In this document: in pieces, positions 6,497 to 55,854 of the stretch | How positions within the stretch are numbered: position 1 is the stretch's first letter | Layout: every line of letters begins with the position of its first letter | Assembly: GCA_051362555.1 (NCBI GenBank) | Contig: CM120646.1 | Span: 11,346,001-11,410,000 of the forward strand | Source of the DNA: Lingula anatina | Lineage: Eukaryota > Animalia > Brachiopoda | Direction of reading: 5' to 3' | DNA length: 64,000 nt | The notes under the pieces: generated by a model | Database searches by the model: none | Seen by the model: the letters and a program-made list of their open reading frames with translations, nothing else | Told to the model about the DNA's origin: nothing | Program-made: the position numbers and the translations under genes

Positions 6497-11989
<5,493 letters not shown>

Positions 11990-14425: not shown

Positions 14426-17400
14426 CTAGTATTTTTCACCAGGAATACACCGTGTCAGGCCCTTGAAAAGCCTTTCATCTATATTGACCAAGTCCACATA
14501 GTTCTGGGCCTTAGAGGTCAGATCTTCCAACTGTTGGCACAACTCTTTGAACGAAGGGCGAAAGGCTGGTGGCTCTCTCCAACAGCGGTACATGATGCGG
14601 TACCTGGGACAAAGTAAGATGGAGGGTAGCTTGGCACATTTTAATGTTTGTTAAAACAGACGGTTGTGTGAAAAAAAATTAAGAACACAGACCACAAAAT
14701 TTAATGACAAATTGATAAGTTGAGTTGAACATTGTACAAACCAGAATGTACAGTACTGAGGTTAATTGAATATTACGGTCGAAAAAAAAAACTACTGAAT
14801 TGCGATCTACAAACCCGTTTTGTGTCACTCCGTCTCTTGTCGCTGCTCCTTTGTCTCATTTAATGCATTTATAGACACAGAGACAACATAAAAGTACACA
14901 GTGTATGAGAGAGAGAGAGACACAGAGAGAGAGAGAGAGAGAGAGAGAGGTGGAGATGGGTACTTACACTTCGTATGTGCAGTGTTTAGGTCTCATCATA
15001 CGGTAACCATTCTCCAATTGTTGCCGTAGTATCATACTGGATATGCCTGGGTAGGGAGTGCAACCTGGGCAGGGAATTAGAATTTTTATTTTGCCGACAA
15101 TTACGTTCTACTCATGTGAATGCTTACATGTGGAGCACTTGTTTGCAGTTCACAAATTATACTTTCTACTTCCTTATTACTGTTTTGAAAAAAGGAAGAA
15201 TTGTGATCAACGCATATTTTTTACGTTTACTCTACTTGCTGTAAGGTCTTTAAAAAGAGGATAAATATATACCCAAAGTCACTATCTCCCACATAAGAAT
15301 ACCAAAAGACCATACGTCGCTGTGGGTGGTGTACACGCTGTCCTTGATTGATTCGAGCGCCATCCAGCGGAGAGGTAGGAAACCCTAATAAAACCATAGG
15401 GATTGTTGATAATTGCTTTTGTGTTGATTTTCATGGATCATGTCTGTCTTGTTAAATCCAGTTCAAAGGGTTGGCAGACAGAGATATGACAAGATAATGC
15501 AGTAGACGAGGGGACTCACTAAACGAACCTTTGCACAGGTACTTGTATTGAAAGATGAAGACAATATACTCCAGGTGGTTACCCAGTTAATTAAATCTGA
15601 CGCATTAGATTGTGTATTCGCAAAACTGAGAATGTTATATAGCTATAGTTGTGTGGTCCAGTGCAACGTACCTGTGACCGGCTCTCGTATTCTCGAATCA
15701 GGCTGACATCTCGCGCCAAACCGAAGTCTGATATTTTACAAGTGAAATGTTCGTCCACGAGCACATTGCGGGTTGCCAGGTCTCGGTGGAGGTACTATAA
15801 AAATAATACATGGTTAAAATAAAGAAAGATCAGAATGTCACGACTAAATTTCATCAATTAACCGCGAGCTTATGTGTATGGAACGTTTTTTTCTCAGTTT
15901 TAATTATGTCATTCAAATACATTATTCTCATTCAGCAAGTATAGCCATTCAACAAGTGTTGTAAGTAGCTGCATTTTGTGCTTAAAACATTTTACTAGTC
16001 CCCCCTGCAAAATTACCAGTAGGACATTATATAAACTTTAACTTAATTTTAACGTGTGAGCTGGAGTAGAAATGCTACTCCCCAGAAGACAATTTACTCT
16101 ACCAAATGCCAACCTGAAAAATGTTACCCAAAAATCCTCCCGCTGAACGACATTAAAATATAATTCTCAATTTTTACGAAAAGTGGTTATTTACCCCCAG
16201 TTCCGCTATATGTGTCATCCCACACGCTACCTCATAGGCAAATGTAAGGAGCTGTTGTGCTGTAAACTTGCTACAGCCGTATGTGTTACTGTAGTAGGTG
16301 TTTCCCCGACCATTCCGCAAAACACGCTGCAGGCTGCCCATTGTCTGGTACTCCATCACGATAAACAGAGGGTCTGGGAAAGATAAGAGAACGTTTTTAT
16401 TACAAAACCATAAAATACAACTCTATAAAGCAGAACTTACAACTAAAAACGTGTGCGTGTGTGTGCTGTTTATCCGTTTTTAACATTGCTCAGAGTAAAT
16501 ACTAGCTCAAATGACACTACACAGTACTGGAGGTTAGTTTTTTTTAATCAAATACCATAGAAAATTATCAGGTATACCTTCTTTGGAGGATGTAGCTATT
16601 AAAGGAACAATATTTTTGTGCGCCGGTACATTTTTCAGTGTCTCCATTTCTGTTTTGAAATCTTCTTTTTCTTTGAACATTGTATTTCCTAGAAAGACAA
16701 TGAAAAATCACATAAGAAATCGGTGCATTAAATTTTTGTTTGTATATCTCACATTAGATTTAAAAATAATTGACATGATGCATGTTTATCAAATACATGT
16801 ACATTTATACAAGTCTGCCAGACACTACATTTCATATCAGCTTTTAGTTGCAGTACGGTGTGTTTTTAGGTTTTTAAAACATGGAAAGTCAAGGCAGATT
16901 AACGACTGAAAAAAAATGGTATCTTCTACACCAAAGCATCCTATCTACCTTTCAAAATGTTAACGGCCACAGTTTTCACTTTTTCCTCGACCTCCATGTA
17001 GCCTTTCCATACCTCTCCGAACTGACCCTCGCCCAGTTTGCAGGAACGATCGAACTGGAGCTCCTGGATTGAGATTTCCCCAGCGCCTGTCTCCGACGAG
17101 GTGTTTTCAGTGCCTGCAGGGTTGCCGGCGTCATGTACCGGAGGTTCCAGCTGGGGCAAAATACGTAAACAGAATTACAAAAACAGTTGACTTTCATTTA
17201 GATACAGTGTATGGCCATTTTAAGAACCTAAGTTACCAGTTGGCAGTTGGCAGATTAAAGATAAATGACAATTTACTGTACACAGGGAAAGAATAGTTTA
17301 TTCAATGTTCAGCGGTTATAGCACAATGGAACATGATGAAATACTAGTCCTTTGTACATTACACCTGTAAACTGCGCGAGTTTATAATGGTGTGTAGATT

Positions 17401-20297
17401 GACTGATTAGTGAAATATTAAATGGTTCACCCCCCGTAGTTCCTCGTCTTCTGGGTCCTGATCCAGTGATCTTCTCCTTTTCTTTCTTGCCTGGTAGTAC
17501 TAAACATTCAAATATAGTGTTATTTTCGGGTTAAGAGGGTTTAGAGGGTGGTAAGGGGGGTACTGACCCCCTGTCGGTTTCTAAAAATATATTCAACCAA
17601 TATATCTTAAAATTATAATTTTGACTTACTAGTTCTAAACCGTATGAAATGGCACCGAGGCTTAACGTGCGCTTCTTTCGAGTTATTCACGTAACAGTAT
17701 GTAGTATGGGATATGTAGGCAACATGCGTAAAGTATTCGAGAATTCCTTAACATCAGACATGCCAAAAACACTTATACTTACATCAATTCTTCGGCTGTT
17801 TGTCCGAGCGTTTAACCTTGACAAATGCAATGCTTAATAAAACAAATAATATGTATGGCTATACGTGTGGACTACAGTGGATCAACTTTTAGGACTCATT
17901 TAAAATGGATGTTGATTAAATGTGACACTTAATCTAGTCTCCTGTAATTTCGTGGTGTGAAGTATGGGTGCATATGATTTAAAATTAAATTGATTGTAAA
18001 CATATACTAGTTTGAGTTTATTCAATCAATTATTGAAAAATTATAATAACAATTTCCCAATTTGGATTTTTTAAAAAATTATCTTTCTGCCTTTTTACAC
18101 AGCTTATTAAAATGGCCCATATATTGGTTCAAAATGTGTTATATATCTGATATAAATACATTGTACGATTAGGTTAAAATGAGCCGATGAGAGGAGAGAT
18201 AAATTTGATCAGAGAAAAATAAGAAGAATGTCTATACCTCTAGAGGCCTTTTTTCTTCGGTTGTATACGATGATAAAAGTGATAAGAGGTCCAAGCAAAA
18301 GAGCGATAGCAAACAGCAATATGGACCAAAAATGAAAATATTCAGAGTTCACTTGGCTCCCTGGAACAATTCTGATCCATTTGGTTGGTTTTGGAATATC
18401 CGTCGAATTAACTGTATGAAAATAAAAAGCCCGATAAAGTAAAAGCCATTTTGTTTTTACCAGACACGTATCTTACTAACAATTTGGTGAGTTGACAAAA
18501 GCATGACCTTTATATACAATAACAACATTTTTACTTCTATACTAGCATATGACAATGCGGAAAACCTCGACTAGGTAGTTTGCCCATTTCTGGATATTAA
18601 AATTGTTCAGTTTAAAACGCATGAAGTAGCGAATCTCAACTTACTTGATTCATCACTGTGGGTAGAAAGAAATACTTCACTTCGGATTTCTGATGATCCA
18701 CATTGATAGTGTCTTTTATTTGAAAACTTTGTCACATTAATCTTGGCGGTAAAACTTTGGCATAGACTTGAGTTTAAGATGTTGCATTTGATGTCTTTGG
18801 CAAGGGTGACGTGGAACTGTTTCCCATCCCTGTACCACAATGTGTCGTGGGCGGGATGTTCCCCGGGGTACAAGTAGCTTGTGACACACTCTAAGGTTAT
18901 ATAGGTTGAAGTGGCGGCCTTCTGAGAAATGTGGACTGAGGTAGGAGGAACTGGAAAACGTAACTTATAAAATTTGGTGCATTGATTAAAAGGAAAACAA
19001 ACCTTGAACAAAAAGGAACGTGTATACATGTTTTTCATCAGAACTTATTACTGAATTAGGTCTTGGCTAAGCCTGCTACAAATGGTTTATATATCTGATT
19101 CATTCGTAACGAATATTGATTCATTTATACAATATAAATAAAATACTGACAGTATCGTCTGCACTTATAAACATATATGTTGTCAAACGTGTGTACACAA
19201 ATATTATTTGGGTTGTGTTACATTCTGTCTATAAACCTTCCAAAATAAACTATAAAAGTCACTTTCGTTTGTCAAATACAATCGTAATTGATGTCATTTA
19301 CCTATTACTCGAACAGTCTGATATTCATCTGACGTGCTAAAACTGCCTTGGTCAATGAACATAACAGAACATGTGTAGTTGCCTCCGTCCCAGTAGCTGG
19401 CATTAGATATTCGTATCAGACAGTTAATGGTGATTAGATACATGTATGGCACAGTCTTAGTACATGTCTCTGAAATGTTTCTTCCGATAAAAACACTCAT
19501 AGGTTTAGTTATATTCACTACAGTTGACCGTAACATGTAGATGGGCCACACATCTCTACCGTTCAGCGGGTTAATTTTCTTCCAGATGACAGTAAACCCA
19601 GGGAAAGGCGACGTAGAGAAATTGCACCAAATTGAAAACGAATCGCCTTCGTCTATTGTTTGCAAAGATGGTACATTTTCTGACACTAATTCTGAAATGA
19701 AATGATGTGATGAAATGACAGTTTATGGTGATTAGACGATATGCTTCTACCCCCCCCCCCCCAACCCGACATGACCTCCCTTACCAACCGACGTACGTAC
19801 AATCACGCAACTACTCTCACGCACATATACTCGTAAACTCACAAAAACGCCCATACAGTACTTTATGTCATAAAATTCTCACCCACATATAATATTTACA
19901 TGTGGAATATATAAATACCAAAGAAACTTCAAGTAAAATAATTAATTACCTGCTGTGTCACTTTGGATTGAAAGATTAAGAAACGAGTTAACATAAGTAA
20001 TAGCTGTACCTCAGCAGTACTGCATAACTATTAATTACAGAAATCCAATTTTTGTGTATCAGATTTTGCTACAGCATATTCCTTTCGATGTGGGGTCTAA
20101 CAAGAGCACAGGAATGAGATTGGTGAATCCAATGCAAAAAAGTGTTCACTCAAAAAGGTGCAGCACACTAAAAACATTATAGCATTTATCATATATATAC
20201 GTATCGATATATACCTACCTTTCATAATTCCACAGGCAGGGGCTATCAATATGATACCCCCTAAAATTAATATGGTAGTTCTCATGTGGGACGCCAT
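14426..20297 (-). CDS. Gene B: chimeric two-Ig receptor with a tyrosine kinase domain lacking the beta-3 lysine (probable pseudokinase)
   Basis: Exons: 20219-20297 leader; 19302-19691 V-Ig; 18645-18950 Ig2; 18238-18411 TM; 17783-17832; 17431-17490; 16949-17150 ([12 protein letters not shown]); 16578-16688; 16195-16373; 15672-15794 ([11 protein letters not shown]); 15273-15384 (PLRWMALE); 14968-15064; 14426-14603. All phases compatible; open to ...IPGEKY*. Confidence 0.85.
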
Positions 20298-22795: not shown

Positions 22796-23370
22796 CTAGT
22801 ATTTTTCACCAGGAATACACCGTGTTAGGCCCTTGAAAAGCCTTTCATCTATATTGACCAAGTCCACATAGTTCTGGGCCTTAGAGATCAGATCTTCCAA
22901 CTGTTGGCACAACTCTTTGAACGAAGGGCGAAATGCCGGTGGCTCTCTCCAACAGCGGTACATGATGCGGTACCTGGTACAAAGTAAGATGAAGGGTAGT
23001 TTGGTACATTTTAATGTTTGTTAAAACAGACGATTGTGTGAAAAGAAAATAAGAATACACAGACCACAGAATTTAACGATGACAAATTAATTAGTTGAAT
23101 TGAAACTTGTACAAACCAGTATATACAGTACTGAGGTTAATTGAATATTACGGTCGAAAAAAAACGACTGAATTACGATCTACAAACCCGTTTTGAGTCA
23201 CTCCGTCTCTTGTCGCTGCTCCTTTCTCTCCATTAAGGTATTTATAGACACAGAGACAACACAAAAGTACAAAGTGTATGAAAGAGAGATAATTCTATTT
23301 CTTCTTTAAGAAATTTACAGACAGAGGTTCACTCTTGCGTTCAGCAAGAAGTACAAAGTGTACAGGGTAT

Positions 23371-23412
<42 letters not shown>

Positions 23413-26400
23413 TGGAGATGGGTACTTACACCTCATATGTGCAGTGTTTAGGTCTCATCATACGGTAACCATTCTCCAGTTGTTGTCGTAGTATCATACT
23501 GGATATGCCTGGGTAGGGAGTGCAGCCTGGGCAGGGAATTAGAATTTTTCTTATACGACAGTTACGTTCTACTCATGTGAATGCTTACATGTATTTTATC
23601 AATTTATTTTGAGGAGTGCTTGTTTGCAGTTCACCAATTACACTTTCTACTTCCTTATTATTGTTTTGAAAAAAAGAGTTAATAGCAAAGTGCATGTCTT
23701 CACGTTCATTCTAAAAACATTTAAGGCTTACAAAAGAGGATATATATACCCAAAGTAACTATCTCCCACATAAGAATACCAAAAGACCACACATCGCTGT
23801 GGGTGGTGTACACGCTGTCCTTGATTGATTCGAGCGCCATCCAGCGGAGAGGTAGGAAACCCTAATAAAACCATAGGGATTGTTGATAATTGCTTTTGTG
23901 TTGATTTTCATGGATCATGTCAGTCTTGTTAAATCGAGTTCAAAGGGTTGGCAGACAGAGATATGGCAAGATAATGCAGTAAACGGAGGGACTCTCTTAA
24001 AGAACCTTTGCACAGGTACTTGTATTTCAAGATGAAAACGATATACTCCAGGTGGTTAGTCAGTTAATTAATTCTGATGCATTAGCCTGTGTATTTGCAA
24101 AACTAAGAATGTTATATAGCTATAATTGTGTAGTCCAGTGCAACGTACCTGTGACCGGCTCTCGTATTCTCGAATCAGGCTGACATCTCGCGCCAAACCG
24201 AAGTCTGATATTTTACAAGTGAAATGTTCGTCCACGAGCACATTGCGGGTTGCCAGGTCTCGGTGGAGGTACTATAAAAATAATACATGGTTAAAATAAA
24301 GAAAGATCAGAATGTCACGACTAAATTTCATCAATTAACCGCGAGCTTATGTGTATGGAAAGTTTTTTCTCAGTTTTAATTATGTCATTCAAATACATTA
24401 TTCTCATTCAGCAAGTATAGCCATTCAACAAGTGTTGTAAGTAGCTGCATTTTTGTGCTAAAAACGTTTTACTAGTCCCCGTGCAAAATTACCGGTAGAA
24501 CATTATATAAACTGTAACTTAATTTTAATGTGTGAGCTTGAGTAGAAATGCTACTTCCCAGAAGACAATTTACTCTACCAAATGCCAACCTGAAAAATGT
24601 TACCCAAAAATATAATTCTCAATTTTTACGAAAAGTGGTTATTTACCCCCAGTTCCGCTATATGTGTCATCCCACAAGCTACCTCATAGGCAAATGTAAG
24701 GAGCTGTTGTGCTGTAAACTTGCTACAGCCGTATGTGTTACTGTAGTAGGTGTTTCCCCGGCCATTCCGCAAAACACGCTGTAGGCTGCCCATTGTCTGG
24801 TACTCCATCACGATAAACAGAGGGTCTGGGAAAGATAAGAGAACGTTATTATTACAAAACCATAAAATACAGCTCTATAAAGCAGAACTTACAACTGAAA
24901 ACGTGTGCGTGTGTGTGCTGTTTATCCGTTTTTAACATTGCTCAGAGTAAAAACTACCACAAATGGCACTACACAGTATTGGAGGTTAGTTTTTTTAATC
25001 AAATACCATAGAGAATTATCAGGTATACCTTCTTTGGAGGATGTAGCTATTAAAGGAACAATATTTTTGTGCGCCGGTACATTTTTCAGTGTCTCCATTT
25101 CTGTTTTGAAATCTTCTTTTTCTTTGTACATTGTATTTCCTAAAAAGACAATGAAAAACCACATAAGAAATCGGTGCATTAAATTTATGTATGTATATCT
25201 CACATAAGATTTAAAAATAATTGACATGATGCATGCTTATCAAATACATGAACATTTATACTAGTCTGCCAGACACTACATTTCATATCAGCTTTTAGTT
25301 GCAGTACGGTGTGTTTTTAGGTTTTTAAAACATGGAAAGTCAAGGCAGATTAAAGACTGAAAAAAACAAAACGGTATCTTCTACACCAAAGCGTCCCATC
25401 TACCTTTCAAAATTTTAACGGCCACAGTTTTCACTTTTTCCTCGACCTCCATGTAGCCTTTCCATACCTCTCCGAACTGACCCTCGCCCAGTTTGCAGGA
25501 ACGATCGAACTGGAGCGCCTGAATTGAAATTTCCCCAGCGACTGTCTCCGACGAGGTGTTTGCAGTGCCTGCATGGTTGCTGGCGTCATGTGCCGGAGGT
25601 TCCAGCTGGGGCAAAAATACATAACCAGAATTACAAAAACAGTTGACTTTCATTTAGATACAGTGTATGGCCATTTTAAGGATCTAAATTACCAGTAGGT
25701 AGTTGGCAGATTATAGATAAATGACAATTTACTGTACACAGGGAAATAATAGTTTATTCAAAGTTCAGCGGTTTTAACTAAATGGAACATGACTAAATAC
25801 ACATACTAGTCCGTTGAAACATTACACCTGTAACATGCGCGACTTAATTATGGTCTGTAAATGACTGATTAGTAGAATATTAAATGGTTCACCCTCCGTA
25901 GTTCCTCGTCTTCTGGGTCCTGATCCAGTGATCTTCTACTTCTCTTTCTTGCCTGATAGTACTAAACATTTAAATATAGTGTAATTTTTCGATTAATAAG
26001 GGATCCAACTGCTATATACACAGTACACTAATTTCGTCTATTACACTTTCCATTTAAAACAGTCGTGACAAACATAACTTCATCTTCCAATATGAATTTT
26101 GTATAATTATGTTCAAAAAGCCAAGCCAATGTACAGTACTTGCTAGTAAATATAATTAATTTTCATTTCTTTTCACGTGCGATTGCAGCCATATCACAAT
26201 AAAATTATATATATACCATGTAGAAAAAGTCTTGTGGAGTACTAGCTGTTACAGATTTTGGTGTACATTCAAGCACTTAAAATATAATTATATCTTCCTA
26301 GACCAACCAGTTTAAACTTAAAAAATCTAACCAAATTAATCTTTAAAAATCTATCGAAAAAAGCTGAAAGAAGAGAAAGTTTAGCTTGGACGTTTCCAAA

Positions 26401-28467
26401 GTCAGCGGACAAAAAGGTCAAAGTTGTCCGGTCAATGTGTTTTCAACTTTGCAGTGTCTGGCGTAAAAATAAAGAGAAGTTGTATAATGTGTACTGTTGG
26501 GATATAATTATGCTCACCCTATATACATAATACACAGCAGTGGTGATAACAATTGAGATGATCGCGCCTGCTGCACTCGCCAGGACATAATTCGCCCCTG
26601 AAACAGACACAGTTGTAAAAAATATACAATACAATAATATGTGCTTCGGTAATATAACATCTGGAGGGCGACCTCTCTTTTATCCTCTCTAATCCTTCCT
26701 TTAATTTCAATGAAAACGTTTGAAATGTGTATGCCATTTTCAGAACCTTTCCAATGACAGCTTACATGTGGAGTTCATAATAATTATGGCAAATTTGAAG
26801 ATAACATACATTAACACACACAATTAGCCATAAACACATTTAGTATATTTTTGCGACTTATATTAACGTTTAAATGGTAATATTTTAATATTAATCGACT
26901 TGCCTACAGCAGTTGGTGCTTCATGTTCCATCCCAATGGTGCTCTCTGAAACTGTGAAGATATGCCAATGACAATACCGTCAAGACAAACAAAGGGCATT
27001 TCAATTTCTTGCTAAACTCTCTCTCTCTCTACTTTTTAATAATCACATCTTGAGCAGTTTATTTTGTTCAGTTGATAGTTCGCTGCTTAAACTGAATTGA
27101 TAATGGACAAATGCAGAATCACCCCGCAGTGCAGCCCTCTTTTTTTTCGGCACAAATAGATTTATGAGAAAAAATCCCCCTACCTGCCTTTTGTAGTGCC
27201 CTATCAGAAGCCAGCTGGGCGATGACGTCATTTCTGTGCTAATACACTCTCTTGGCAGAACAGATATGTTCACTGAATTAGCCAGAGTATTGTCAACTTA
27301 TACAAAGAGTAAAATATCTCAGTGATTGAGGGTACACATTAAAACAAATAATACACAGTATATTGGTGGCGCGTTTAGCCTCACCTGTTACTGTTAAAGA
27401 AAACCTCTGCAGACACGGATGAGACTCATCTATGAGATGGAACTGGCAGGTATAGTCAGCCTCGTCTTCAGGGGTCAAACTATAAATCGACAACAAGGTC
27501 CAGTTTCTTCCCACTGTGACGTTCAATCTGTCGGTAGAGACGCTCGACTTGGGCTCTATCGTTTGACCGGCGTTCTTGTAAAGGAAAGATGCCATTGTCT
27601 CCGATTTCTGAGAACCCTTGCGTTTGAACCAGTCAATTTCTTTAACCCTGTTCATGCTGTCTTTGTCCATGGAGCATTTTATCTGGGCTCGATCTCCGGG
27701 TGAAAATGCGGTTTTCTCAGGTGACTTTGAAATTTGGCAACCCTGGGCTGAGAAAACAATTGGAAAGCTTTAGAAAGGGACTTTGTATGAAAAACAAACG
27801 ATTGATATGAGTCACGCTATATAGTTTTCTAGTGTCTATGCATTGATCTGTTGACATACCTTCATACCTAAAAAAGAAGATCCATTCAATACGCAAAAAA
27901 TCATATTATTTAAACAATTGTGAGTTCCCTTTTACACTTTTAGTTAATTTTACATGTGGACCTCTACCTATTTCTTCAAGCCCGTTGCATCTTTGCAGAT
28001 GCAGGAAGTTTTCTACCCCTGCTCCGTAATTGCTTGTTGATCAATGCAGAGTTGAATAGCAAGAAGTTTGTGTAACATTCCCCTTGCCTTCGGTCCAGTT
28101 AAGAAAATATGGGTGTTTAAACAGTCTATAATGTATTTGTTAAGTTATGAACTCGATAATGTGATGATATATCAGCGAAACATTGCCTGAAAATTTTATT
28201 TGTTGAATTTTCTCAAGTAAAAATTATTCAAACTTTTAAGCAGAAGTAGACGGCAGACCGACATGAAGACAAAGGCGGCTTCATCAAATTCTGACACAAA
28301 GAGATAATATATGGCTTTATCGTACATATCGCTGGTTAAACTAAAGCTTACACTGCGCTAGTGTCTCCTCAAAACCTGAAATAATAAAATTCTGTTCCTC
28401 TACCTTGCACCAACAGGGTTATAGTGATCAACCACCTCTTCATAACACGGGTCGAATTATTCACCAT
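22796..28467 (-). CDS. Gene D: receptor tyrosine kinase with one V-type Ig domain and intact catalytic motifs
   Basis: Exons: 28404-28467 leader ([21 protein letters not shown]); 27385-27747 V-Ig (IKCS..IDWF..DEADYTC); 26904-26951 stalk (GC donor); 26518-26597 TM; 25893-25952; 25404-25605 (VAVK); 25029-25139; 24647-24825; 24149-24271 (HRD, DFG); 23750-23861; 23430-23526; 22796-22973. Confidence 0.88.
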
Positions 28468-29220
28468 GTAACAGATCTTCCAGGCTCTTTTCTCGTGGGA
28501 TATGAAAACTTGATGCTTTGAGCCAAAAAGTTGAGACTTAATTACAGTTCACGAAGCACCTGCAGGGGTTTTAAGAAAAGAAACCTCTTTTCGTAGACAG
28601 ACCTTTATTTTTTATTTTACTTTCAACTTCTGTAATGACTCATTGAAAAAAACAGAACGGTTGTGAGAACGTTGTTATAATTATGAGTCATTTTGTTGTC
28701 TATTGAACTTTCTTTCAACTAAATGTTTACAGATTTCTTTTGAAAATGAAACAGGTGTATAAGAGCTATAGAACTACATTGATAGAGCTATAGAACGCGT
28801 TGTCCCTCAAGCAGATCTTTCTCAATTAATCGACGATTTAAGTAGGAGATTATTCTTTTCAAAAGTCAATGCATTAAAATTTTCATCAATTACATTCATA
28901 TACACATATTCATATATGAATATTAGACCTTTGAAAAGAAAGCTCCACTAGATTCAGATGTAATAATAATATTTGAAAGATTTATTTGTCAAAGCCGATC
29001 AAAAAGCCTAACCTATTAAATTGAAAGTATGAGTCAACGAAAACTTGGGTATGTTATCCTTTCGTTTTGAAGTATGCGGTCACCTGCCGCTTCACAACAA
29101 TAGGTCTATAAATAGCATATGGATGGCGTAAGCAAATTCACAAACGGTGAAACGGCGCTCTAAATATATTCATCACTTTGCAAAAATTGTAAAACGAAGT
29201 TAAATGTGCGACAGGCTAAG
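28468..29220. promoter_or_regulatory. Divergent promoter region between D and C
   Basis: 753 bp between opposed ATGs; TATAAATA 29107-29114; AP-1 consensus TGA(C/G)TCA at 28636, 28684 and 29030; inverted homologue of the upstream regions of A and B. Confidence 0.6.
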
Positions 29221-32200
29221 ATGGAGTTCCACGGGAGAACTACCATGTTAATTCTAGGGGTAATCATGTTGATAGTCACTGCCTGTGGGATTACGAAAGG
29301 TAGGTATATATTGATTCGTATATATGATAAATTCAAATATCAATAATTAGTATGTTTTTAGTGTGCTACACCTCTTTGAGTGAACATTTTTTTTGGCATG
29401 GGTGATATTCACTACAGGCCCTTAGCCAGGGGGGGTTCGGGGGGTTCGAAAGAACCCCCCTTTTTGCTGGAAAAAGGTCCACTCTGGGTAAAATTTGACC
29501 TAGGTACATGGGGATTATATGGTAAAAGGTCCACTTTTTCAGAAAAATAACCCCCCTTTTCAAATTGCTGGCTACGGGCCTGCACTAATCTCATTCCTTT
29601 GCTCTTATTAGACCCCGCATGGAAGGGAATATGCTGTAGCATAATCTGATACAGAATAATTGGATTTTAGTCATTAAAAATAACGCGGTGTTGTTGATGT
29701 ACAGCTATTACTTATATTAAATAGTTTCTTAACCTATTATTCCAAAGAAACACAGCAGGTAATGGAGTTTCTTTCGTATTTATTTTTTCTTTATGTAATA
29801 TTGTAATTGGGCGAGAATGTTATAATATAAAGAAGGATTAACGAGCGTAAACGGGTGAGAGTATTCTTCTGTGTGAACATACGTTGGTTGGTTGGGGCAT
29901 GTCGGGTTTGGAGGGGGGTGCAGGTGTTTTAGAAGCATATCATCTATTCACCATAAACTGTCATTTCATCACATCATTTTTATTTCAGAATTACTGTCAG
30001 AAAATGTACCCTCTTTGCAAACGATAGACGAAGGCGATTCGTTTTCAATTTGGTGCAATTTCTCCATACAGCATGCCGCTGGGTTTAATGTCAACTGGAC
30101 GAAAGTTAACCCGCCGAACGGTACAGATATCCGACCCATCTTCACGTTACAGAGGACTGGAGTCAATATAAATAAAACTTTCATTGACAGAAACATTTCA
30201 GTCACGGTGACATTACTAAAGAATATGTCATATCGTTGTCGGATACAAATATCTAATGCCAGTTACTGGGACGGGGGCAACTACACATGTTCTATTAAAC
30301 CCACTGGCCATGGCAGTCTTACCACCTCAAATAAATATCAGACTGTTCGAGTGATAGGTAAATGACAAAAAATTACGATCAAATTTTGCTTTTATATAGT
30401 TTATTTTGTAACGTTTATAAACGTAGTAAATAATGCAATCCAAACAATATTTGTGTACAAACGTTTGACAATATATATATATATATATGAATAAAAATTC
30501 GTTACGAATGAATCAAATATATTAATCATTTGTAGCAGGCTTAGCCAAGACCAAAACCACGTTGTTAAAGGTTTGTTTTCCTTTTATTCAACGCACCAAA
30601 TTTTATAAATTACGTTTTCCAGTTCCTCCTTCCTCAGTCAACATTTCTAAGAAGGCCGTCACTTCAACCAATATTATCTTAGAGTGTGTCACAAGCTACT
30701 TGTACCCAGGGGAACATCCCGCCCACGACATACTGTGGTACAGGAATAGGGAACAGTTCCACGTCACCAGTGCCAAAGACCTTAAATGCAACAGTTTAAA
30801 CTCAAGTCTATGCCAAAACTTTTCGGCCAAGATTAATGTGACAAAGGTTCCAAGTAAAATATATCAGTGTGCTTCATCAGACATCCGAAGCAAAGTAATT
30901 CCTTCTAAGCAAAGTGTTAATTCAAGTAAGTTGAGATTCGCTACTTCATGCACTCTAATATATTTGATATCCAGATGTAAGCAACCTAGTCGAGGTTTTC
31001 CGTCTTGTCATATGCTAGTACACGAGTAAAGATGTTGTTATTGAACATAAAAGTCATGCCTTTGTTAACTCGCCAAATCGTAAATGAAAATACATGTAAA
31101 TCTGCCAAGAACAAAATGGCTTTCACTCTGTCGGTCTTTTCTTTTTATGCAGTTAATTCCAGAGGCATTCCAGAACCAACCAAGTTGATCAGAATAGTTC
31201 CAAAAAGCCAAGGAAACTCTGGGTATATTTTTTTTTGGTCCATACTGCTGTGCGTTGTTGCTCTTTTCCTGGGACTTTTTATCATTATAATGATCGTATA
31301 CAACCGAAGGAGAAAGGCCTCTAGAGGTACAGACATTCTTCTTATTTTTTTCTCTTATCTAATTTAAATCTCCTCTGATTTGTTTATTTTAACCTTATAG
31401 TATAATGCACACTTTTGCACGTCTTTTGACAAGATATGGGTCCGCTTATTAAGCAGAAAGACAGAACGATTGTAAAAAAGGTAGAAAGGAAAAATGGAAA
31501 AATTAAATTGAAGAAATTTATGTAACTGTTTAATAATTAATTTTATAACGAATTAAATGCCTTATTTTAAATCATATACACCCATGCTCACAAAAAGAAT
31601 TGACAAAGGACTAGCATACGCATAGGTGCATAAGTCAAATTTATTCACCATCCATTCTTAAAGGGATAACAACTGCTCATTTTAGCCACAAAATTAATTT
31701 TCCTGGAGTAAACGACAATTTCCCCATACTTACTAATGGTTAATGAATCTATTCCAACATTCAAAGTTATATTTTTTTCTAAAAAGTTTGGTTTTTATAA
31801 TATCCTCTCAACAGATTATTACAAAGAGTAAAAAATGAAAGTCGTAAAAATGATCCTCCACGTCTGGTGTTGGACAGATCACAGATCACAGATACATTTT
31901 ATTTGTTTATTTATAGCGGTACATACCTCAAGGCAAAACACTAGGACTAACCGCCGCCGAAGACGTGATGTAAGTATAAGTGTTTCTGGCATGTCTGATG
32001 TTAAGAAATTCTCGAATATTTTACGCATATCGCAGACATATGCTATACTACGTACTCTCACGTGAATAACTCGAAAGAAAAGCACATACCAATAGAACGC
32101 AAGCACACGTTAATCTGTGTCCGAAGCAGAAAACTGGTCTTCAATCTCATAATTGTATGGCTCTTTTGGGCTTGAACTTTCGGTTTTTTTCAGCACGCTT

Positions 32201-32439
32201 GGACGAATTTGTTTTCTTGTGCTTTTCTTATTATAACCGTTTTATACAATAAACATTGAAGATAATATTTTCTATCTATAAGTGTTAAACGTTAAAAATA
32301 TCAAATCCCATTGCAGGCATTGAGGTTAAACGTGGAAGGACTCATTTATGCGGACCTTGATATTATCGGCAGGCCCCCAAAGAGAACGACTTTTATCGAG
32401 AGAGAGAAAACGGAATACGTGCAAATAAGGAGGGTGTAG
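29221..32439 (+). CDS. Gene C: two-Ig transmembrane receptor with ITIM and ITSM-like tail, no kinase
   Basis: Exons: 29221-29299 leader; 29989-30357 V-Ig; 30623-30925 Ig2; 31153-31326 TM; 31917-31969; 32317-32439 reading ALRLNVEG-LIYADL-DIIGRPPKRTTFIEREK-TEYVQI-RRV*. Canonical splice sites with matching phases. Confidence 0.9.
29415..29582. mobile_element. 168-bp MITE in intron 1 of gene C
   Basis: TIR CAGGCCCTTAGCCAG...CTGGCTACGGGCCTG; 5-bp direct repeat CACTA on both sides; the paralogous introns of A and B lack it. Confidence 0.85.
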
Positions 32440-35400
32440 GTGCAACACATTTTGTGACAACGCACAAAACTTCATGATCAGAAGCGTAGACATCAGTACT
32501 TATAGGTGTTCTCCACATGAACGCACGTGTTTGTATTTGCGTGCGTGCGTGCGTGCGTGCGTGCGCGCGTGTGTGTGCAGAAATAGGTGACCCAGGCTTC
32601 TTATGCTAGATGGTTGCATGCACGCTGTATGGTTCATCTTATCTTTATTTCAATTGCCTATTTAAATCCCATTATTTTTATAACTAACTTCATCAACTTA
32701 AGTGATCATATCATATGTATAGTAAGATTTATCATGGATTCATATAAACATTGGTTATTCTAAAACTGGTGGTACTGGATTAATTGGCATTTTGGAGAGC
32801 GCAATGACCAGTGGCATTCATTGTTAAAACATAATTAAAATAATATTTAATTAGAATTGATTGATAAAAAATTAGATATTCATATATGTGTTGGTTGGTA
32901 TAGTGGACATGTAAAATGTACATGAACATACTATAAGAATGTATCAGTTGGTTTTTAAACCATGACTGTACTTTTTTGGTATAATTGAATATCTACAGGT
33001 AGTTTAATAACAAATATATGTTGGCAATCCACTGTTTATTTGCCGATCTGAAATTTTGCTGTTACTATAATCATGCCCAAGGTTTTAATTGAATCAATCC
33101 TTATTATTCATAAATTGAACTGAACACCCCTGAAGTAGTGTGTTTTCCATAAATCGGTCATATTATAAAATAAAACTGTCAGAATCTCATCATATCTCTT
33201 ACACATGGATCAAGTTATTAGACATTATCCAAAAATTATTTTTGCATTTCAATTATCTAAATAAAACAACTTTTTGGTCCATTTTTCCTAAAAATACATC
33301 AAATTTGGCCTTAGGTGACCTTTGTCCATTGATTTACTGTAATTGCTACAATACATATTACGTATATTTTTTTGTTATATTAGCGATTACAGCTATCATT
33401 TTGAAAAATAAACTAGCATATCTAGCAAACCTGAGCATTTTTCCTACCCCGCCTTCATTATTTAAAAATCAAACTAAACACCCTCAGTAGCACATAATTG
33501 TGTCCTCCGTATATATCTAATTTTGCAAAATGTAGTGTCAAAATCTCATCGTATCCATTAAATATAGACCAAATTATTAGAAATAATCCAAAAATATTTT
33601 TCCTTTCCATTCTCTTTATTAAATAGCTATTTGGTTCATTTTCCTGGAATAATTCAAAATTGATCTCAGGTGATATTTGACCTACTTTCATTGTTATATT
33701 ATACAATAACAATTTTTTTCGTTGTTGTTTTACCAATTAGAACAATCCTTCAGCTAAATAAAGGAAAGTTTTTTTTTGTGCAGAATTGTTTGAAAATAAT
33801 AACTTTTGCTGACTCGTCACATCATAATTATTAGGATGATGAGTCTTATTTAATATTTAATTTTTATCCCTAAGGCCATAATATTTAACGCAGGCAACAA
33901 TTTGCTACATTGTTATTATTGATAAAATTATTAGGATAGTGAGTTTATATAATAAAAGCGGCCTTGTTTGGCCAAATCACGAACAACCGATAGTCTTTGT
34001 TGCCTTTTCTTTTGTTACGAATGGGACTATGCAAGTTTGTGGTACACTGGGATGGAGGACACATAAATAAATTATATTCTAATCCAGCAAACCTATCAAA
34101 TGATGAGCATTATTGATACATTGACCATAAATGTCTCATACTATAAACTGATAAATGGCACCAAATCCCTTTAATACGGCAAAGTTATCAAAAATGAGCA
34201 TAAAACAATCATGAACTAGGGAACTAATGTTGACTGACATTCTATTTAAAAATTACTTTATAGGTTTATTTTTCCTAAAAACGCCTCATATTTGACCTAG
34301 GGTAACCTGTGCCCTCCTTTGGTTACAGGTTATTCAATATGACAAAAGTCATTTGACTTATTTCTTTAAACCTATCCTTCAGCTGCATAATGATGCAAAA
34401 AAATTGCTTCATCTGGTGCTATTTTCATAATATGGATTTTTCCCTCGCCCTACATCCATCTTTTTACTCCCAGTCATGCAGCTAATCAACGTATACTGAC
34501 CATTCACATTATGAAAGATACTGACTATAGACTTCGCATGATGCCAATGAACCTCGAGGCTACCCAATTCGTACCGATGGACCCCTCTACCTGACGGACT
34601 ACATGTACTACTAGTATACTGTATCTGGAGGTTATAGTATGTTCATAAATTGGAATCCCCCATGTATAAACATTTTCAGTATATATTATAGTACCTGGTC
34701 ACTCTGCCAGATATTTTAACGTTATTTTTCGAATTATGACTATATTGAAGAGATCAGAACAATCACAGATACATGTGCAAATGCTGACCTTGAGTTGCTG
34801 ACTTATTCTAAGGTAAGCTGCAGGGGATGCTAATATATATAGCCTAGGATTCAATATTGGCTCTTGGAGAGAGCTCAGTAGTGATCAAATCAGACAACTC
34901 ATTTAATGCTCTAAACTACAATAACAGGTACATATAGCTGTAGCACGCTTGATCACCATATGCTCACAACAATGTTATGAGCTGATGATATGTTTTAACG
35001 TAAAAAGAGTTCACTAACTTTCTTCGCTTTTTTTGGCGTATTCACTCTGCGTACTGTTAAGATAAATAAATCGCCCAAGGTTTACGCAATGCCGTTTTTT
35101 TGTGTACCAGCAACTTGAGCAGGTCATATAAGGCCAAGTGTTTAAATAATTCCTAGGTGGCACTTCCACGCACATTTTGGAGGATTTTTTAAACCCATGG
35201 AGTGTACCTTAAAGCAGCAATGATGTAAAAGGATCTGGGAATGCTGCAAAGGAATACAACAGAAAAGAGAAGAAGGTTCCTGACAGGGAGTGTTAAATGA
35301 AAACAGACATCAGGACGATCTGATGCCAAGACGGAGAGATGGAAAAGGTGTAGAAAGGGACACCATTCATGAAGAGGATATGGGAATTATACATAGAAAT

Positions 35401-35673
35401 AATGAGTGTGAAGTTGTACATTCGCACGAATGACCTTATAAATTAAATAGATCATGATTGTGGTAGCGGAGTTAAGACTGCAACGTACATTGTATATTAC
35501 AATATCTAGGGTCACTGCACAAAACACATGACATGAATTATATGCAGTGTGCAGGCTATGAGAAATGGATATTTTGACCTTATTATTTTTTCTGTTGACA
35601 CTTTAGTCAACAGTTATCAAAACAGTAATACAACGGTAACAATAACATGTGAAGATGATCCAACCGTGTGAAG

Positions 35674-35725
35674 ATGATCCAAACACATGGACAGATGCTT
35701 ACTTTGCGTTGCTGGTTAATAACAG
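35674..35725 (+). CDS. Family-2 leader exon (MIQTHGQMLTLRCWLIT), orphan or first exon of gene E
   Basis: Homologous to F exon 1 (47652-47703): 52 nt, phase-1 donor GTGAAT, preceded by the same upstream block and 19-bp repeats. Confidence 0.55.
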
Positions 35726-36597
35726 GTGAATTTAATATTGATACATAACCGTCTTAGTAGACCTAATTAATCCAGGTATTTCTTTCTTGAACATCACAAC
35801 AGTAGTCAGAAACTCACGAATCATTTAACATTCTCTCTGCACTTGGTATCGACCTTTGACAAATTTTGTAAAGCTTGATTTGAAACTTAAGATGACTGGC
35901 CAACCATTATAACAGCGACCATTTCCCATAAGCTTAAATGGAAATATTAACATCAGGAACGCTGCAGAAAAAAAAAAAAACTAGGGGTTTAATCATCCCA
36001 AGGTGTGTGTGATGTTTTATCAGAAACTATGGATGGCAAAATAAGCATATGAGAGGATTTTCATACCCATGAAGGGTACCTTTAGGCAGCAATTATGCAA
36101 AAAGGTTCTGGGAGCGATGCATCGGAATACAACGGAAAAGAGAAGGTCTCTGACGGGGACGATCTGATGCAAAGACGGAGATTTGGAAAATGTGTAGAAA
36201 GGAGACGCCTTTTATGAAGAGGGGAGTGGAATTATACATTGAAATATAAAGAGTGTGAAGTTGTACATTCGCACTTGAAAAATGCAATGAAACCTCATTG
36301 TGGTAGCGAAGTTCCACTGCCACGTTGAATGTTTATAATATCACGTGACGTAAATTATGTGCAGTGTGCAGGATATGAGAAATGGATATTTTGACTTTAT
36401 TATTTTTTCTGTTGACACTTTAGTCAACAGTTATCAAAACAGTAATACAACGGTAACAATGACATGTGCAGATGATTCAAACATGTGAAGATGATCCAAA
36501 CATGTGAAGATGATTCAAATATGTGAAGATGATCCAGAGGGGATCCCAACACATAGACAGACGCTACATGTATCTTTGCATTGCTGGTTAATACTAA

Positions 36598-42465: not shown

Positions 42466-43085
42466 ATTAACAAGCGTAAAACGTCGTGTTCAATAAGGGA
42501 TATATTCTAGCTAGACCTGCTTTGTCCAGGGTACAAAATTCCAAGGTCGACTTGGGGAAAACACGTGTGCTTTTTTAGACAGCTGATTCAAGGATTTTGT
42601 AAAACCTAAAATAATTTATTTTATGTTGTGCATTAACAACAAGATCTCAGTTTTATTCTTTATAAGTTTCAGTAGGAATAATGAGTTATTTAAAGGATTT
42701 ACATAACAGATATGAATTTTGCAAAATATTGCGCGAAACACATGTCGTGGACTATTTGCAGGCGCGTAGGTGTTCTTGTATTAATCACGACTTACTCATT
42801 GACATGCCAGATCTGCGTACAGACTGCTAGCAGTCTTGGGGATATAAAGTTTAAATGCAGCGAAAACTGTCAGTACAGGTACATATGTGCGCTGATACAC
42901 ATTTGTAGTTGATTTAAGTTTTGAAACTGAAGTAGGGGCTTACTAGACTACCAGCATTTTTGCTTTGCTATATTTTGGAGGTTGTTGCAAAATTATCCAC
43001 CTACTTTGATCACAGGTATTTTGCACACAAACAGACATGAATACAGTTAATTACCAAATAATAATATCATACTTTGTTTTTACAG

Positions 43086-44931
43086 CGTGTTTTTCTTTAG
43101 CGGCGTTGCAAAATACAACATATTCTATATTTGCGCGAGAGAATGGTCCTGTCGAAATGAAATGGCCACTGTTCATTGGGGAAAATGAAGACAGGTCAGT
43201 GGTAAACGTTATGATCAAAAAGAGAGATGCTCGTCTTTGTCAGTGGGTGAAGCTACCAGTAAATGAACACCGTGAGGACATCCATTGCGACCCTGGATTG
43301 AACTTAACAATCAGCCCAAAGCATGTGTGTGTACCGAGTCCAACCAACATCACTGCTACATTTTCCTTTAAGAACAAGGGGCGTGTCGATGATGGGACCT
43401 ACGAATGTCGTTTTGTGATTGATGAGCAATGGCACGAGATGCAAGTGTATCCGAGACATTTAGTAACAACGGGTGAGTTACTTGTGTGTTTAATGTAGAT
43501 GTTTGCATCTGCCAGTACGTTATTCATATGGTTGATTTTCTTTAAAACCATCGGCTGCAATTCACTAATCTTATATAAAACTATAAATTGTCTTTCACAC
43601 TCAGCATGCCATAAAGTAATTAACCAAAATATATTTCCCTGTTGAAACGATCCTTATAAGGAATGGAACCGAAATATCTCGCTCCAGACTTAAATGTCAA
43701 GTTGATGCAGACGAAACAGATGGCGTTGAGATGTCCTATTGCTCTTCAGTCCATTCTGTCGAAATCTCAGGCGGTCAATACAAGTGTAAAGTGGAACATG
43801 CCGGTTACGTTGTTGACAGCGCAGAAGTGGACATCCCATTTAGAACAAAAGGTGACCCTGAGGAGTGTATTTTCATTATATTACAAACTCTCTCTCTCAT
43901 ATTGGTGTTGGTTATATTAAAACGAAAATAAAACTGATATTTACTTGAAGTTTCATGAAACGTTTTTACATTTCATTTCAAGTAACCAATTCCATTTCTT
44001 TTCTTTTTTTTTGTATTTTTCACATCATCTTCACCAACAGAAAACGAAACAAGTGCTGCATGTCCTGGGATTAATGACTCTGAGATTTCGACCCCTATAT
44101 TGTTGTATGTTATAACAATACTAACCTCAATTATCGTTGTCCTGGTAGTATTTGTAGTGATACTTGTCTACCTTGTCTATCTGGTATGGCGAGGTGGGAA
44201 ATCCGTGAAAACATGTGGTGAGTTACACTCATTTCAGTTTGACTCAATTACTTAACACATAACTCACTACTTCAATAGGACTTAAAATCTTGCGTCCGTT
44301 TGCCGTTTCAACGAAACTTCGTTGTAGATTAACGGAGTTGATAATGTGCATGGTTACAGGCAAAATGTAAAAATGTTTAATTTTCTTAAAACTGTTACAC
44401 AACATCATTTTTTATAGACCGAGATAGGAATGTTACGCAATTCAAAGAAAAACAGAACGGCGTTTTGCCAATTACGCACCTTACACTGGTTCAATTGAGA
44501 TCGTTCCCTTAGCAATCGAAATCGAACCTTGCATTTCCCAAACTTACGGTAAGCTTCACTCATTTCAGTTTGACATAAGTAAAAAAAACTACATCGTACA
44601 CTGTAGTTAAGATATCGCATCCATTTTCTGTTTCAACGAAGCTTCGCTCTGGATTAACGGATTTAACAGTGTGGTGAATAACTTTAAGGCATTTCAGTGA
44701 ATGCCGTTCTGGAGCATATATAGTTCAGCGATGGTTTTGCATGGTTATTCATTTGTATCGGTTCTTGTGAGTGCAAACATACTAATTTCATTACATAAAC
44801 TCATTTTGACGAAACATGGTAGGCCTACTGTAAATATTTCAGGTTCCACGAGCGGAGATAGCCACTTGCCATATGGACTTGATGTCGAGAACGGACAAGC
44901 ACTAGAAATAACTGGCATTGCCCATGTGTAA
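43086..44931 (+). pseudogene. Gene E: family-2 Ig receptor, damaged (pseudogene or shortened single-Ig form)
   Basis: Intact Ig1 exon 43086-43472; Ig2 exon has lost its 5' part and acceptor (about 43638-43851 remains); intact TM exon 44041-44217; cytoplasmic exon from 44418 is one A short versus paralogues (stop 44510-44512); terminal exon 44843-44931. Confidence 0.7.
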
Positions 44932-48779: not shown

Positions 48780-49257
48780 TGGCCACGCGCCAATAAATAA
48801 ACTTCGTTTCCAGCTTGTTGTTCTTCAGAGACTTTGCAAGAAGACACAGAGGCTGTGTTTGCGCGAGAAAATGGCCTTGTAGAACTGAGCTGGTCACTGT
48901 TTATTGGTGAAAATGCAGGCAGGTCGTCGGTAAATGTCATGATCAGAAAGAGCAACGCTCTGCTTTGTCAGTGGGTAAAGGCACACTGGGAGGTAAACCA
49001 ATGCGACCCAGGAATGAACTTAACAATCAGCCCAAAAGACGTGCGTGTACCTGGTCCAACCAATATTACTGCTACGTTTTCCTTTAAGAACAAGGGGCGT
49101 GTCGATGACGGGACCTACGAATGTCGTTTTGTGATTGACGAAAAATGGCACGAGATGCAAATGTACCCCAGATATTTAGTGACAACGGGTGAGTTACTTG
49201 AACAGTGAGTAAAACTGTTTGCATCTGCTAGTACCAGTATAGAATAATGTAAGGTAA

Positions 49258-49328
<71 letters not shown>

Positions 49329-52300
49329 ATTAATTTCATAAAGCAATTAGCCAGGTATGCCACATTTATTTAGTGGCCCATACGACAGGAAATGAGCCCG
49401 TCTCCAGGGAAGTAACAAAGGGGGTGGTCGAATAAAGCACTAGAGCAAGCCTCCGAACTTGTCTATTCCTGCTCCAGTGATTAACTCGAATACCTAGATC
49501 GTTACCTACCCGGAGAAATGCTCATCTCCTGTTGAATGGATCACCCTTAGCCTGTACATTCTCCAAACCTATCCTCTTTGGATTATTTTTTGTAAAGATG
49601 AATATTTAACAGTGCCTACCTGTATGTGCCAACAATCCTCAATCTGTTGATACGCCCAAGAACAACATTTAAACGGAGATCAGTGAAATTCCCATGGATA
49701 TGATAGACATTGCCATTATATACTTAAGTTTTCGAGTAGTCACAGTGATCCAGCACCAAGTAGCTTGAATCGAACTAGGTCGGAGAAGAGACGGAGAAGC
49801 GGCTTTAAATCAAAACCTCTCGGAAGGTAAAAGGTAAATCTAATTTTAAGAGCGCGTCCATGAGAAAGCCAGACAGATCAGTCAGAAGGTGGCAAGGTGG
49901 GGGTCAGCAGATTTTAATAATTTTTGGTGTGGTAAACCATCAACATAAAAGATATTGTGAGCCACTGGCTTTCTTATTTTGGATCATTAGTTTTAGAGAT
50001 ATGGGGGCAGATCTTTTATTGGCAATTTTGCCAAAATATAGCACTTTTTAGCTCTTGAAAAGTTATAATTTTAAATATTCTTTTAAAAAATCATGTACAG
50101 CATAAGGAATTATTAAGGTAAGCCACATGATAGGTTAAGGAAAGACCTTTAATACCCAGTACAGATTTTTTGAAAAGGCACTGTCATGACCACACAAGGT
50201 TGATTCTAATAAGGCATGTTTTCCGTATGCTTGACCTCCCCCCCCCCTTCTTTAAATGCACACAACTTCTTTTTTGCAGGTTTTATCCATATAATTTTGG
50301 TATGTGCTGATAGAAAAGGGTTGAAAAATAAATTTTGTAAAATAAAATCTGTGTTAAACCTTGTAAAATAAGAACTACAACAATTTTAAAAAGGGCCTAA
50401 AAACGAATATTTTTATACTACTTAAATGCTAAACTGTTTCTTCAACTAAATAAATAAGTCAAAACCATGTATAGGTTTGTGAAAAGCCCTTAAAATAATT
50501 ATGTTTGCCCTGCAGACGAACTTATGAAGCGAAAATGCATTTTTTAAATTTGTTTATGTTGTAGAAACTAAATGTAAAATAACGATGCTAACTCTGTGAC
50601 CTATTTTCAACATGGCGGGTACTAGGATTATCACCGGAGCAGCTGTGGAGCAAAGCACATCGTCTTCACAGTGTTAAAACATAATACTTTCTTAAATTTA
50701 TGAAGAACACGCACTAGAGATGCTTAAGTACATCTCAGAAGGATTGGTGTGCACCAGAATATAACAAGAAATGACCATAGCAGCTGGTCGTCCTTAGAAT
50801 GTGCATTTTTTGGTTGAACCACTTCAGACTGTTGTCAGGCTTGGGTTCCTCAATATATCCATCTCATCGATTTAGCTCTGGATGTTTGTTGTAAGGTAAG
50901 TGATCAGTGGTGGCATACATATACTAGAATCAGATACACTAAAAACTCAAACCAGTTTAAATAATACGTTTGAATATTATTCAGTAATATAAAGAATATA
51001 AGCAAATTTTAAAGACATACTGGTATATTTCAATTCACAGAGTTTTACTTGATTTCTGTTTCATGGTAAACATGTATGCTGAAAAGAATTAACTGTGTAT
51101 CTAACTTATGAAGTATATTTTTGCATTAAATTCTAGGGCTTTGTTACATGTGTTATCATAACACAAACAGTTAAGGACTATGCTGAGCTTGAAGACAGCT
51201 TCATAAGAAATTTCTTACCCAGAGTCAAAGGTATGTAACACACATTCAGTTTCAAGTTTTGGCATTTTAGGGGATGTTACTTGTGCCAGTTTTTTACATT
51301 TTAGTTTTTTATTCACTTTGCAGATTTGTGTGTTTACAATGAAGTTGAAGTTAACCGCCTGTGCTTCAATTTTCAAGACTTACATATATTACACAGGACA
51401 CTTGTAACTAAAGGTACTTATGTAAAATCAGGAAAACTTTGCGGTCCATTATGTTGTTCATGTTGCTTTGCAAGGGGGCGTGCCAGACAATTAAGCTGAT
51501 TACAACGACTGAGCCCGAGTGTGATACTCCGCTGAGATAGATTGATCCTGCTACGATAGTTTCTATTCTGAACACAGTAAGCCTCTGTTGTTGTAAAGCA
51601 TTTATTGATGTTATGTTTATTTTTCAGAATTTACATCCTAGTCCTGTATGTGAACCTTGACCTGGACAATCTTACAGACAATAATAGAAAAGTCACCTGA
51701 AATTGCACAGGCAAATTCATCAGATTCAGATGTGAGCACCAACTTTGTAATGCCTGGAACACTTCCATGGAGAAGAAAAAAGGTTTACCTTTTTTTCATT
51801 TGTTTCTTTTTATATCATGAAATTCTGGTAGCTACAGTCATGCATATTTGATTTCTTTTTTTTTACATTTATGCAATATGTTTGATCAGAATATTATTTA
51901 GTAATTGTTCTTATACAGCAATTAACATGAGTTTAAAATATGTTTAATACATTTTCTTTTGACAGCCTGTCCTGCCATCTTCAGGTAGAATCAGTAGTGG
52001 ATATCCTGGCAAACCTCTATTGGACTTGGAGGAGCCACCTTGGGACAATCCCCTATTGGACTTGGAGGAGCCACCTTGGGACAATCCCCCATGACAAATG
52101 TGCATCTTTGTCTTGGCAATCTCATTCAGTTTTGTAGGAAAGGAGGATTGGGGCCATTGAATTTACAAATATTGACAATTGACAGTTCAGTCACACTAAA
52201 CTATAGTGGCATGTTGCTTCAAGTTACCACACTTATTCTAAGATTGCTGAATTATCATTACTGTAGGAGACCCTGGATCTCTCAACCAGAAGAAGAAACT

Positions 52301-54978: not shown

Positions 54979-55329
54979 TAATCAAGCCTTATTCGGTACC
55001 AACCTGATTTGAAATGGACGAACGACGAACGAAACCGAGAACAAGCTAAGACAACAAGTTTGGCTGGAAAATGACAAAATATAAATCAAATCAACAAGCT
55101 TTTAAAGGTTTTGTGGAAAAAAGTTCTGTGAAGGAAAGATGAAAGATGCTTGAAATAACACAGTAAGACAAAGGTGGAACGAAATTAAGGTTATGGCTGC
55201 AAATCTGAACAATAGTGAATGCAATGGGAATATAAAAAGAGAGGCAATCAATCTGTGACAAGCTTTGGAGCCGAATTCCAACACGGCAGCAGGCCCACTA
55301 CCTGGAAATTAAACCATCATCCTTGAAAG

Positions 55330-55850: not shown

Positions 55851-55854
55851 ACAC

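Follow-up and report, generated by a model that had tools for sequence, protein, structure and literature searches.

A predicted ITIM/ITSM-tailed immunoglobulin receptor linked to receptor tyrosine kinases with the same ectodomain in Lingula anatina

One gene in a 64,000-nucleotide stretch of Lingula anatina DNA (the window, by which we mean the whole stretch analyzed) is predicted to encode an immunoglobulin (Ig) receptor, here called C, that would recruit SHP2 or SHIP and thereby act as the inhibitory partner of linked Ig receptor kinases with the same ectodomain. We hold this reading to be slightly better than an even bet, with a probability of roughly 0.55. The main point is that two neighboring kinases, A and B, are, to judge by sequence, C's own paralogues and carry its ectodomain. 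A lophotrochozoan ITIM receptor is already known; an ectodomain held in common with linked receptor kinases would be the unusual part.

Gene C comprises six exons that encode 366 residues as a leader-IgV-IgC-TM receptor, with GT-AG introns and one open frame that includes the tail; the phases of exons 1 to 5 are 1, 1, 1, 1 and 0. Because the donor at 31969 is of phase 0, the stretch 32317-32439 extends the frame of the 366-residue model without stops.

29221 to 29299, plus strand: gene C exon 1, ATG and hydrophobic leader, phase 1 (trace RNA depth, run X9)
29989 to 30357, plus strand: gene C exon 2, V-type Ig domain (Pfam Ig_2 E 4.9e-9, V-set 6.9e-6)
30623 to 30925, plus strand: gene C exon 3, second Ig-like domain, likely C1/C2-type (ESM Atlas top 0.94)
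31153 to 31326, plus strand: gene C exon 4, stalk, TM helix without charged residue, basic stop-transfer
31917 to 31969, plus strand: gene C exon 5, basic juxtamembrane segment, phase-0 donor common to A and B
32317 to 32439, plus strand: gene C terminal exon as predicted, 40 codons and TAG, after TTGCAG
32341 to 32358, plus strand: ITIM LIYADL, Y337 of the 366-residue model, tyrosine codon at 32347
32410 to 32427, plus strand: ITSM TEYVQI, Y360 of the 366-residue model, tyrosine codon at 32416

The ectodomain holds 12 N-glycosylation sequons. Exon 3 has no Pfam match, and nine of its ten best family matches in the ESM Atlas fall in one clan; the AlphaFold models of both Ig domains are poor (pLDDT 42.6 and 41.0). 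Where an exon of C differs in length from its counterpart in A or B, which happens five times, the difference is always a multiple of three, against 12 of 44 intron gaps; among single exon gaps eight of 14 are multiples of three, and the remaining six compensate one another inside IgV. Since the exon length differences keep to multiples of three, gene C is likely maintained as coding; it looks like a gene selected as such and in need of a last exon. The Ig exons give dN/dS values of 0.78-0.99, none significantly different from 1, which fits mixed selection and also drift, and the one region comparison in 13 with dN>dS (the TM exon, A versus C; bootstrap 0.018) is lost under multiple testing. 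Invariant positions in the IgV domain number one of six in the BC loop and three of 12 in the FG loop, the loops being named from the Cys-Trp-Cys positions, and 20 of 25 and 16 of 23 in framework. Such loop variation fits a putative diversifying recognition surface for which no positive-selection test was significant.

Self-comparison of the window shows two genes on the minus strand, A and B, to be paralogues of gene C in inverted orientation; beside them lies a third receptor kinase gene, D.

6497 to 11989, minus strand: gene A, 12 exons, 581 residues, leader-IgV-TM-juxtamembrane-tyrosine kinase K1 (open GT-AG model, Pfam kinase)
14426 to 20297, minus strand: gene B, 12 exons, 666 residues, leader-IgV-IgC-TM-juxtamembrane-kinase K2 (open GT-AG model)
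22796 to 27747, minus strand: gene D, distinct IgV, stalk, TM, kinase K2' (open frame; V-set E 1.6e-8)

The Ig domains of A and B are 64-72% identical to those of C: the IgV domain of C is 64% identical to both, and its second Ig domain is 72% identical to that of B, gene A being without a second Ig exon. Each of A, B and C closes its leader-Ig-TM-juxtamembrane cassette with a donor of phase 0, after which A and B continue into kinase exons and C into the motif stretch. The TM segments of A, B and C hold no K, R, D or E. The kinases themselves are in differing states of repair. D has all four motifs (G-loop, beta-3 lysine, HRD and DFG), with VAVK and HRD intact; K1 of gene A has HQD in place of HRD (8117-8119, minus strand); and K2 of gene B has Asn in place of the beta-3 lysine (codon 16959-16961, minus strand). 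Non-RD kinases have been linked to innate immune receptors, and loss of the beta-3 lysine cripples a kinase. Gene B may be a kinase-dead receptor, or the lysine change may reflect allelic variation or a fault in the assembly. K2' is 97% identical to K2, and the dN/dS between them is 0.16. Gene D has a candidate leader exon near 28443, and its stalk exon (26904-26951, minus strand) shows an apparent GC donor, the frame staying open through TM and kinase. A 122-nt tandem repeat at 6372-6598 (1.9 copies at 96%) copies the closing part of the last exon of gene A, which holds a C-terminal tyrosine motif.

An independent gene model bears on the structure of gene A. The Lingula anatina record XP_013398663.1 matches gene A at ~98% identity across the first 410 residues (seven differences, counted by eye) and joins the cassette to the kinase N-lobe as our model does, although it breaks off ahead of the catalytic loop by running on into an intron. 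Its name, "fibroblast growth factor receptor," is a database label; the record holds one Ig domain. Searches with the IgV domain (101 and 2850 candidates) returned this record only, with no B or C allele of 215-2000 residues. Counted for the reading of gene C are an ESM Atlas recognition of 3106 and a match of 0.85 to an unnamed, mostly mollusc cluster, which serves as a lead only.

The cytoplasmic tail is where gene C parts from its paralogues. The earlier note on this DNA, made from the letters alone, had described a 41-codon stretch encoding LIYADL and TEYVQI with tyrosines 23 residues apart, and both coordinates and motifs were reproduced exactly; the spacing is that of the 40-residue translation of 32317-32436, in which these two are the sole ITIM/ITSM consensus matches. 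Published consensus forms, as given in PMC8631942, are S/I/V/LxYxxI/V/L for the ITIM and TxYxxV/I for the ITSM, and the same text ties alanine at pY+1 to docking of SHP1/SHP2-type phosphatases. The gene C ITIM has alanine at this position. The ITIM/ITSM reading thus holds up as far as fit to the consensus is concerned; conservation of the tail among paralogues, for which the note had proposed a search, is so far unsupported, A and B having no copy of it. This absence is no refutation, because A and B end in kinases. The GC content of the tail is 0.46, versus 0.27 directly upstream.

Might the motif stretch not be an exon in use at all? Gene C could instead be spliced to an acceptor 123 nt upstream of 32317, or be barely expressed, and would then yield a short-tailed decoy that competes for ligand, the motifs being due to chance or to a minor isoform; were the tail unspliced, the finding would reduce to a decoy beside a duplicated receptor tyrosine kinase cluster.

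32194 to 32259, plus strand: rival acceptor, 21-residue tail without either motif (score 10.1 versus 5.3; branch-like CTCAT at -48)

The splice sites speak for this alternative. The acceptor of 32317, which had been called good, does read TTGCAG, but with its score of 5.3 it is better termed acceptable: the 26 other acceptors of these genes score from -0.05 to 9.6 (median 6.8), its pyrimidine fraction of 0.53 is below that of 25 of them, it stands no higher than 12th among the 219 AGs found over 32010-36500, and there is no match to a branch point within 70 nt of it. It nevertheless falls within the top 7% of 6795 AGs, and in the kinase models a score below 1 occurs at three of the 26 acceptors without loss of the kinase frame. 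The upstream acceptor, for its part, leads to an AT-rich, hydrophobic 21-mer end that scores -0.076 versus -0.010 for the motif tail in a coding-versus-intron model trained on A and B, a weak model in which 33% of 1082 non-coding open stretches score at least as high as the tail. Four of nine listed same-species RNA runs were set against 26000-35000 (~6,400 million letters, 6-30% of each run). Depth on gene C, repeats aside, came to 0.27 in the exon 1 bin and 0.20 in the exon 2 bin of run X9 and to 0.74 in the exon 3 bin of run X7, values that we read as ~1-3 reads; in the tail bins depth was zero, and none of the four runs gave an exon joint, at a trace depth too low to show any. The stretch is a putative exon, read from the open frame that follows the phase-0 donor at 31969. 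(Interspersed repeats at 29410-29590, 31660-31790 and 33780-34060 draw nearly all RNA reads here, from other loci.) Two protein searches, too, leave room for a decoy: a shared-word search with the tail gave four candidates, none at E up to 10, and phmmer over 1.84 billion representatives gave one match and no homologue. A frog repeat protein was rejected as a tail homologue, being without the tyrosines and a matter of summed repeat noise. As for chance, the ITIM+ITSM pair is unremarkable window-wide, occurring in one of 1228 open frames, with a mean of 0.33 per 64 kb in 30 simulated windows. What weighs against the decoy is position. When any plausible acceptor at most 700 nt from a donor was allowed to give the pair in phase 0, this happened in eight of 6000 simulated 700-nt regions and in none of 178 real window tiles, and under a looser rule (ITIM plus either motif) in 71 of 6000 simulations and two of 178 tiles, a positional chance of 0.13-1.2%; as the window holds ~6 TM receptor genes, multiplication brings this to roughly 1-7%. 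We consider the decoy improbable.

A tail that does bind SHP2 need not be an immune brake. Gene C might be an adhesion or growth co-receptor that gives a positive MAPK signal, in the manner of PZR, and SHP2 is indeed often a positive factor that raises Ras/MAPK signaling downstream of receptor tyrosine kinases (PMC10231330); PZR, with two ITIMs, promotes migration via SHP-2 (PMC7290418). The cluster as we find it, however, is recently duplicated and mosaic, with variable Ig loops, and is in these respects nearer to recognition clusters such as Hydractinia Alr than to conserved adhesion genes; the IgV searches, moreover, brought up no relative beyond Lingula among their 101 and 2850 candidates. 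A positive co-receptor of this kind seems to us unlikely. Far less probable again is that the tail descends from the last exon of a tyrosine kinase, now decayed, the second tyrosine being the C-terminal docking tyrosine of that kinase. MAFFT did align parts of the tail with kinase subdomains, and there is a PxxRxTF-like string, but the tail aligns to the cytoplasmic regions of A and of B no better than shuffles do (P 0.60 and 0.28), and no copy of it exists elsewhere in the 64-kb window, where the best DNA match scores 36 and shuffles give 29-41. The last exons of the kinases here, furthermore, start in phase 2 and the tail in phase 0. Shuffle-level alignments and phase mismatch together largely refute such an origin.

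If gene C is instead the inhibitory partner of the linked kinases, its working model would run as follows. The donor at 31969 would be spliced to 32317, and the resulting receptor would bind the same ligand as A and B, or a related one, and cluster with A, B or D; at an IgV identity of 64%, the ligands of C may also differ from those of A and B. Y337 and Y360 would then be phosphorylated by kinase A or D, or by a Src-family kinase. Kinase B is without its beta-3 lysine, so A and D remain as the candidate kinases for C. SHP2 (or SHIP) would dock at both sites through its tandem SH2 domains, and the kinase signal would be damped. As the mosaic identities described below suggest, unequal exchange would have swapped cytoplasmic modules at the juxtamembrane intron, and B would have arisen in this way. 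One may go further and picture brachiopod paired receptors in which receptor tyrosine kinases are the activating members and the ITIM+ITSM gene the inhibitory one, module swaps at one phase-0 intron having fitted a single diversifying Ig front end with an active kinase, a dead kinase and a phosphatase-recruiting brake; we put this broader proposal forward tentatively and with more doubt than conviction. If true, activating/inhibitory pairs would here be built without ITAM adaptors, via an ectodomain common to receptor kinases, which would be unusual. The repeated origin of checkpoint-style SHP2 and paired-receptor logic by exon shuffling is a question that the cluster makes testable.

Gene C has the leader, Ig ectodomain and single TM helix of ITIM/ITSM inhibitory Ig receptors. 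Like PD-1, BTLA, G6b-B and PECAM-1, it would be a type I receptor of the Ig class in which the ITIM lies close to the membrane and the ITSM farther from it. The tyrosines of PD-1 are Y223 and Y248, 25 residues apart (PMC7078208), and those of G6b-B are Y211 and Y237, 26 apart (PMC3501490); the spacing of 23 in gene C is near both, in a comparison of two receptors that involves no binding test. BTLA has alanine at pY+1, as does the gene C ITIM. Unlike PD-1-type receptors, gene C has V and C domains, and kinases as paralogues. Set against the PDB, its ectodomain finds neurotrimin, Dpr2, contactin and PD-1 as the best listed matches, at E 2e-4 or weaker, with no Siglec among those listed; the PD-1 matches are weak and generic to Ig domains (E ~1e-3 or worse). 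On present evidence the tail of gene C would work like one of PD-1 type, yet by sequence affinity the gene lies outside the PD-1 and Siglec families.

By analogy, the closest design to the Lingula cluster is the RTK/SAM set of the sponge Geodia, whose SAML carries an ITIM. In Geodia cydonium a polymorphic IgV-IgC ectodomain occurs in kinase and non-enzymic forms and is upregulated in grafting (PMC11926128, PMC7153836), the RTK and the non-enzymic adhesion molecules SAML and SAMS having matching two-Ig ectodomains (PMC11926128, PMC7153836, PMC2248247). The accessible text of PMC11999971 holds nothing further on such pairing of RTK and non-enzymic forms. Unlike their Geodia counterparts, the Lingula genes are linked, employ two unrelated kinases, include one copy without the lysine and leave the swap point visible. 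Sponge structures are absent among the listed ectodomain matches, though homology this remote may escape a search by sequence. The cluster would tie the sponge case to a bilaterian.

Vertebrate paired receptors (LILR, KIR, SIRP, CD300) come from linked genes whose ectodomains are alike and whose cytoplasmic signals oppose each other. A, B and C resemble them in being linked and similar in their ectodomains, with different tails after the same phase-0 donor; variable loops and mosaic copies are likewise common to both. The difference lies in activation, which in the vertebrate members relies on a charged TM residue and an ITAM adaptor and would here rely on an intrinsic kinase, the TM of A, B and C being uncharged. 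Among invertebrates, the oyster receptor CgNCAM1, also lophotrochozoan, has two ITIMs and recruits SHIP2 (PMC11841013); amphioxus BbLcLRR has an ITIM tail that recruits SHIP or SHP (PMC8211107); and in Hydractinia the Alr genes, an Ig family found as a cluster, combine conserved ectodomains with tails that diverge and bear an ITAM or an ITIM (PMC9546547). None of the three, in the parts of these papers available, has an ectodomain common to a receptor kinase, as gene C does. A literature search that covered few subscription journals found no paper on ITIM receptors in Lingula or on kinase/ITIM pairs in invertebrates; as an argument for novelty this blank is weak.

The history of the cluster can be read in part from the non-coding DNA of gene B, whose pieces are variously of A, C and D type, making the gene, as far as identities go, a mosaic. 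The 300 nt upstream of gene B, like its intron 1, match A at 94% identity and C at 83-84%; for the intron that follows IgV the closer match is C, at 89%, with A at 80%. In the juxtamembrane intron, the first 117 nt align to intron 5 of C, and from ~17540 the alignment passes to the intron and kinase of D.

17540 to 17667, minus strand: switch zone in the gene B juxtamembrane intron, C-like on the 5' side and D-like on the 3' side

The cluster thus keeps the swap point at the DNA level. Since the intron switches from C-like to D-like, B likely gained the D kinase by unequal exchange within the phase-0 intron; and since it begins like that of C, a C-type gene may have been donor rather than derivative. 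In gene A, the intron at 10888-11142 (minus strand), where the second Ig exon is lacking, has a start like that of C intron 2 joined to a 69-nt piece, which is 93% like the start of C intron 4.

Elsewhere in the window lie two more related Ig-like/TM genes with post-TM exons (43010-44930 and 48801-56380, plus strand). They have no Pfam Ig match, and some copies are broken or duplicated; the five post-TM pieces translated from them contain no ITIM. Further along is a Mutator-like transposase (PF20700, E 6.8e-52) at 57099-58304, with a likely second exon at 58958-59647 (plus strand). Inside the last Ig/TM gene, at 55313-55800 (plus strand), are fragmentary frames, presumably a decayed reverse transcriptase insertion, which they resemble.
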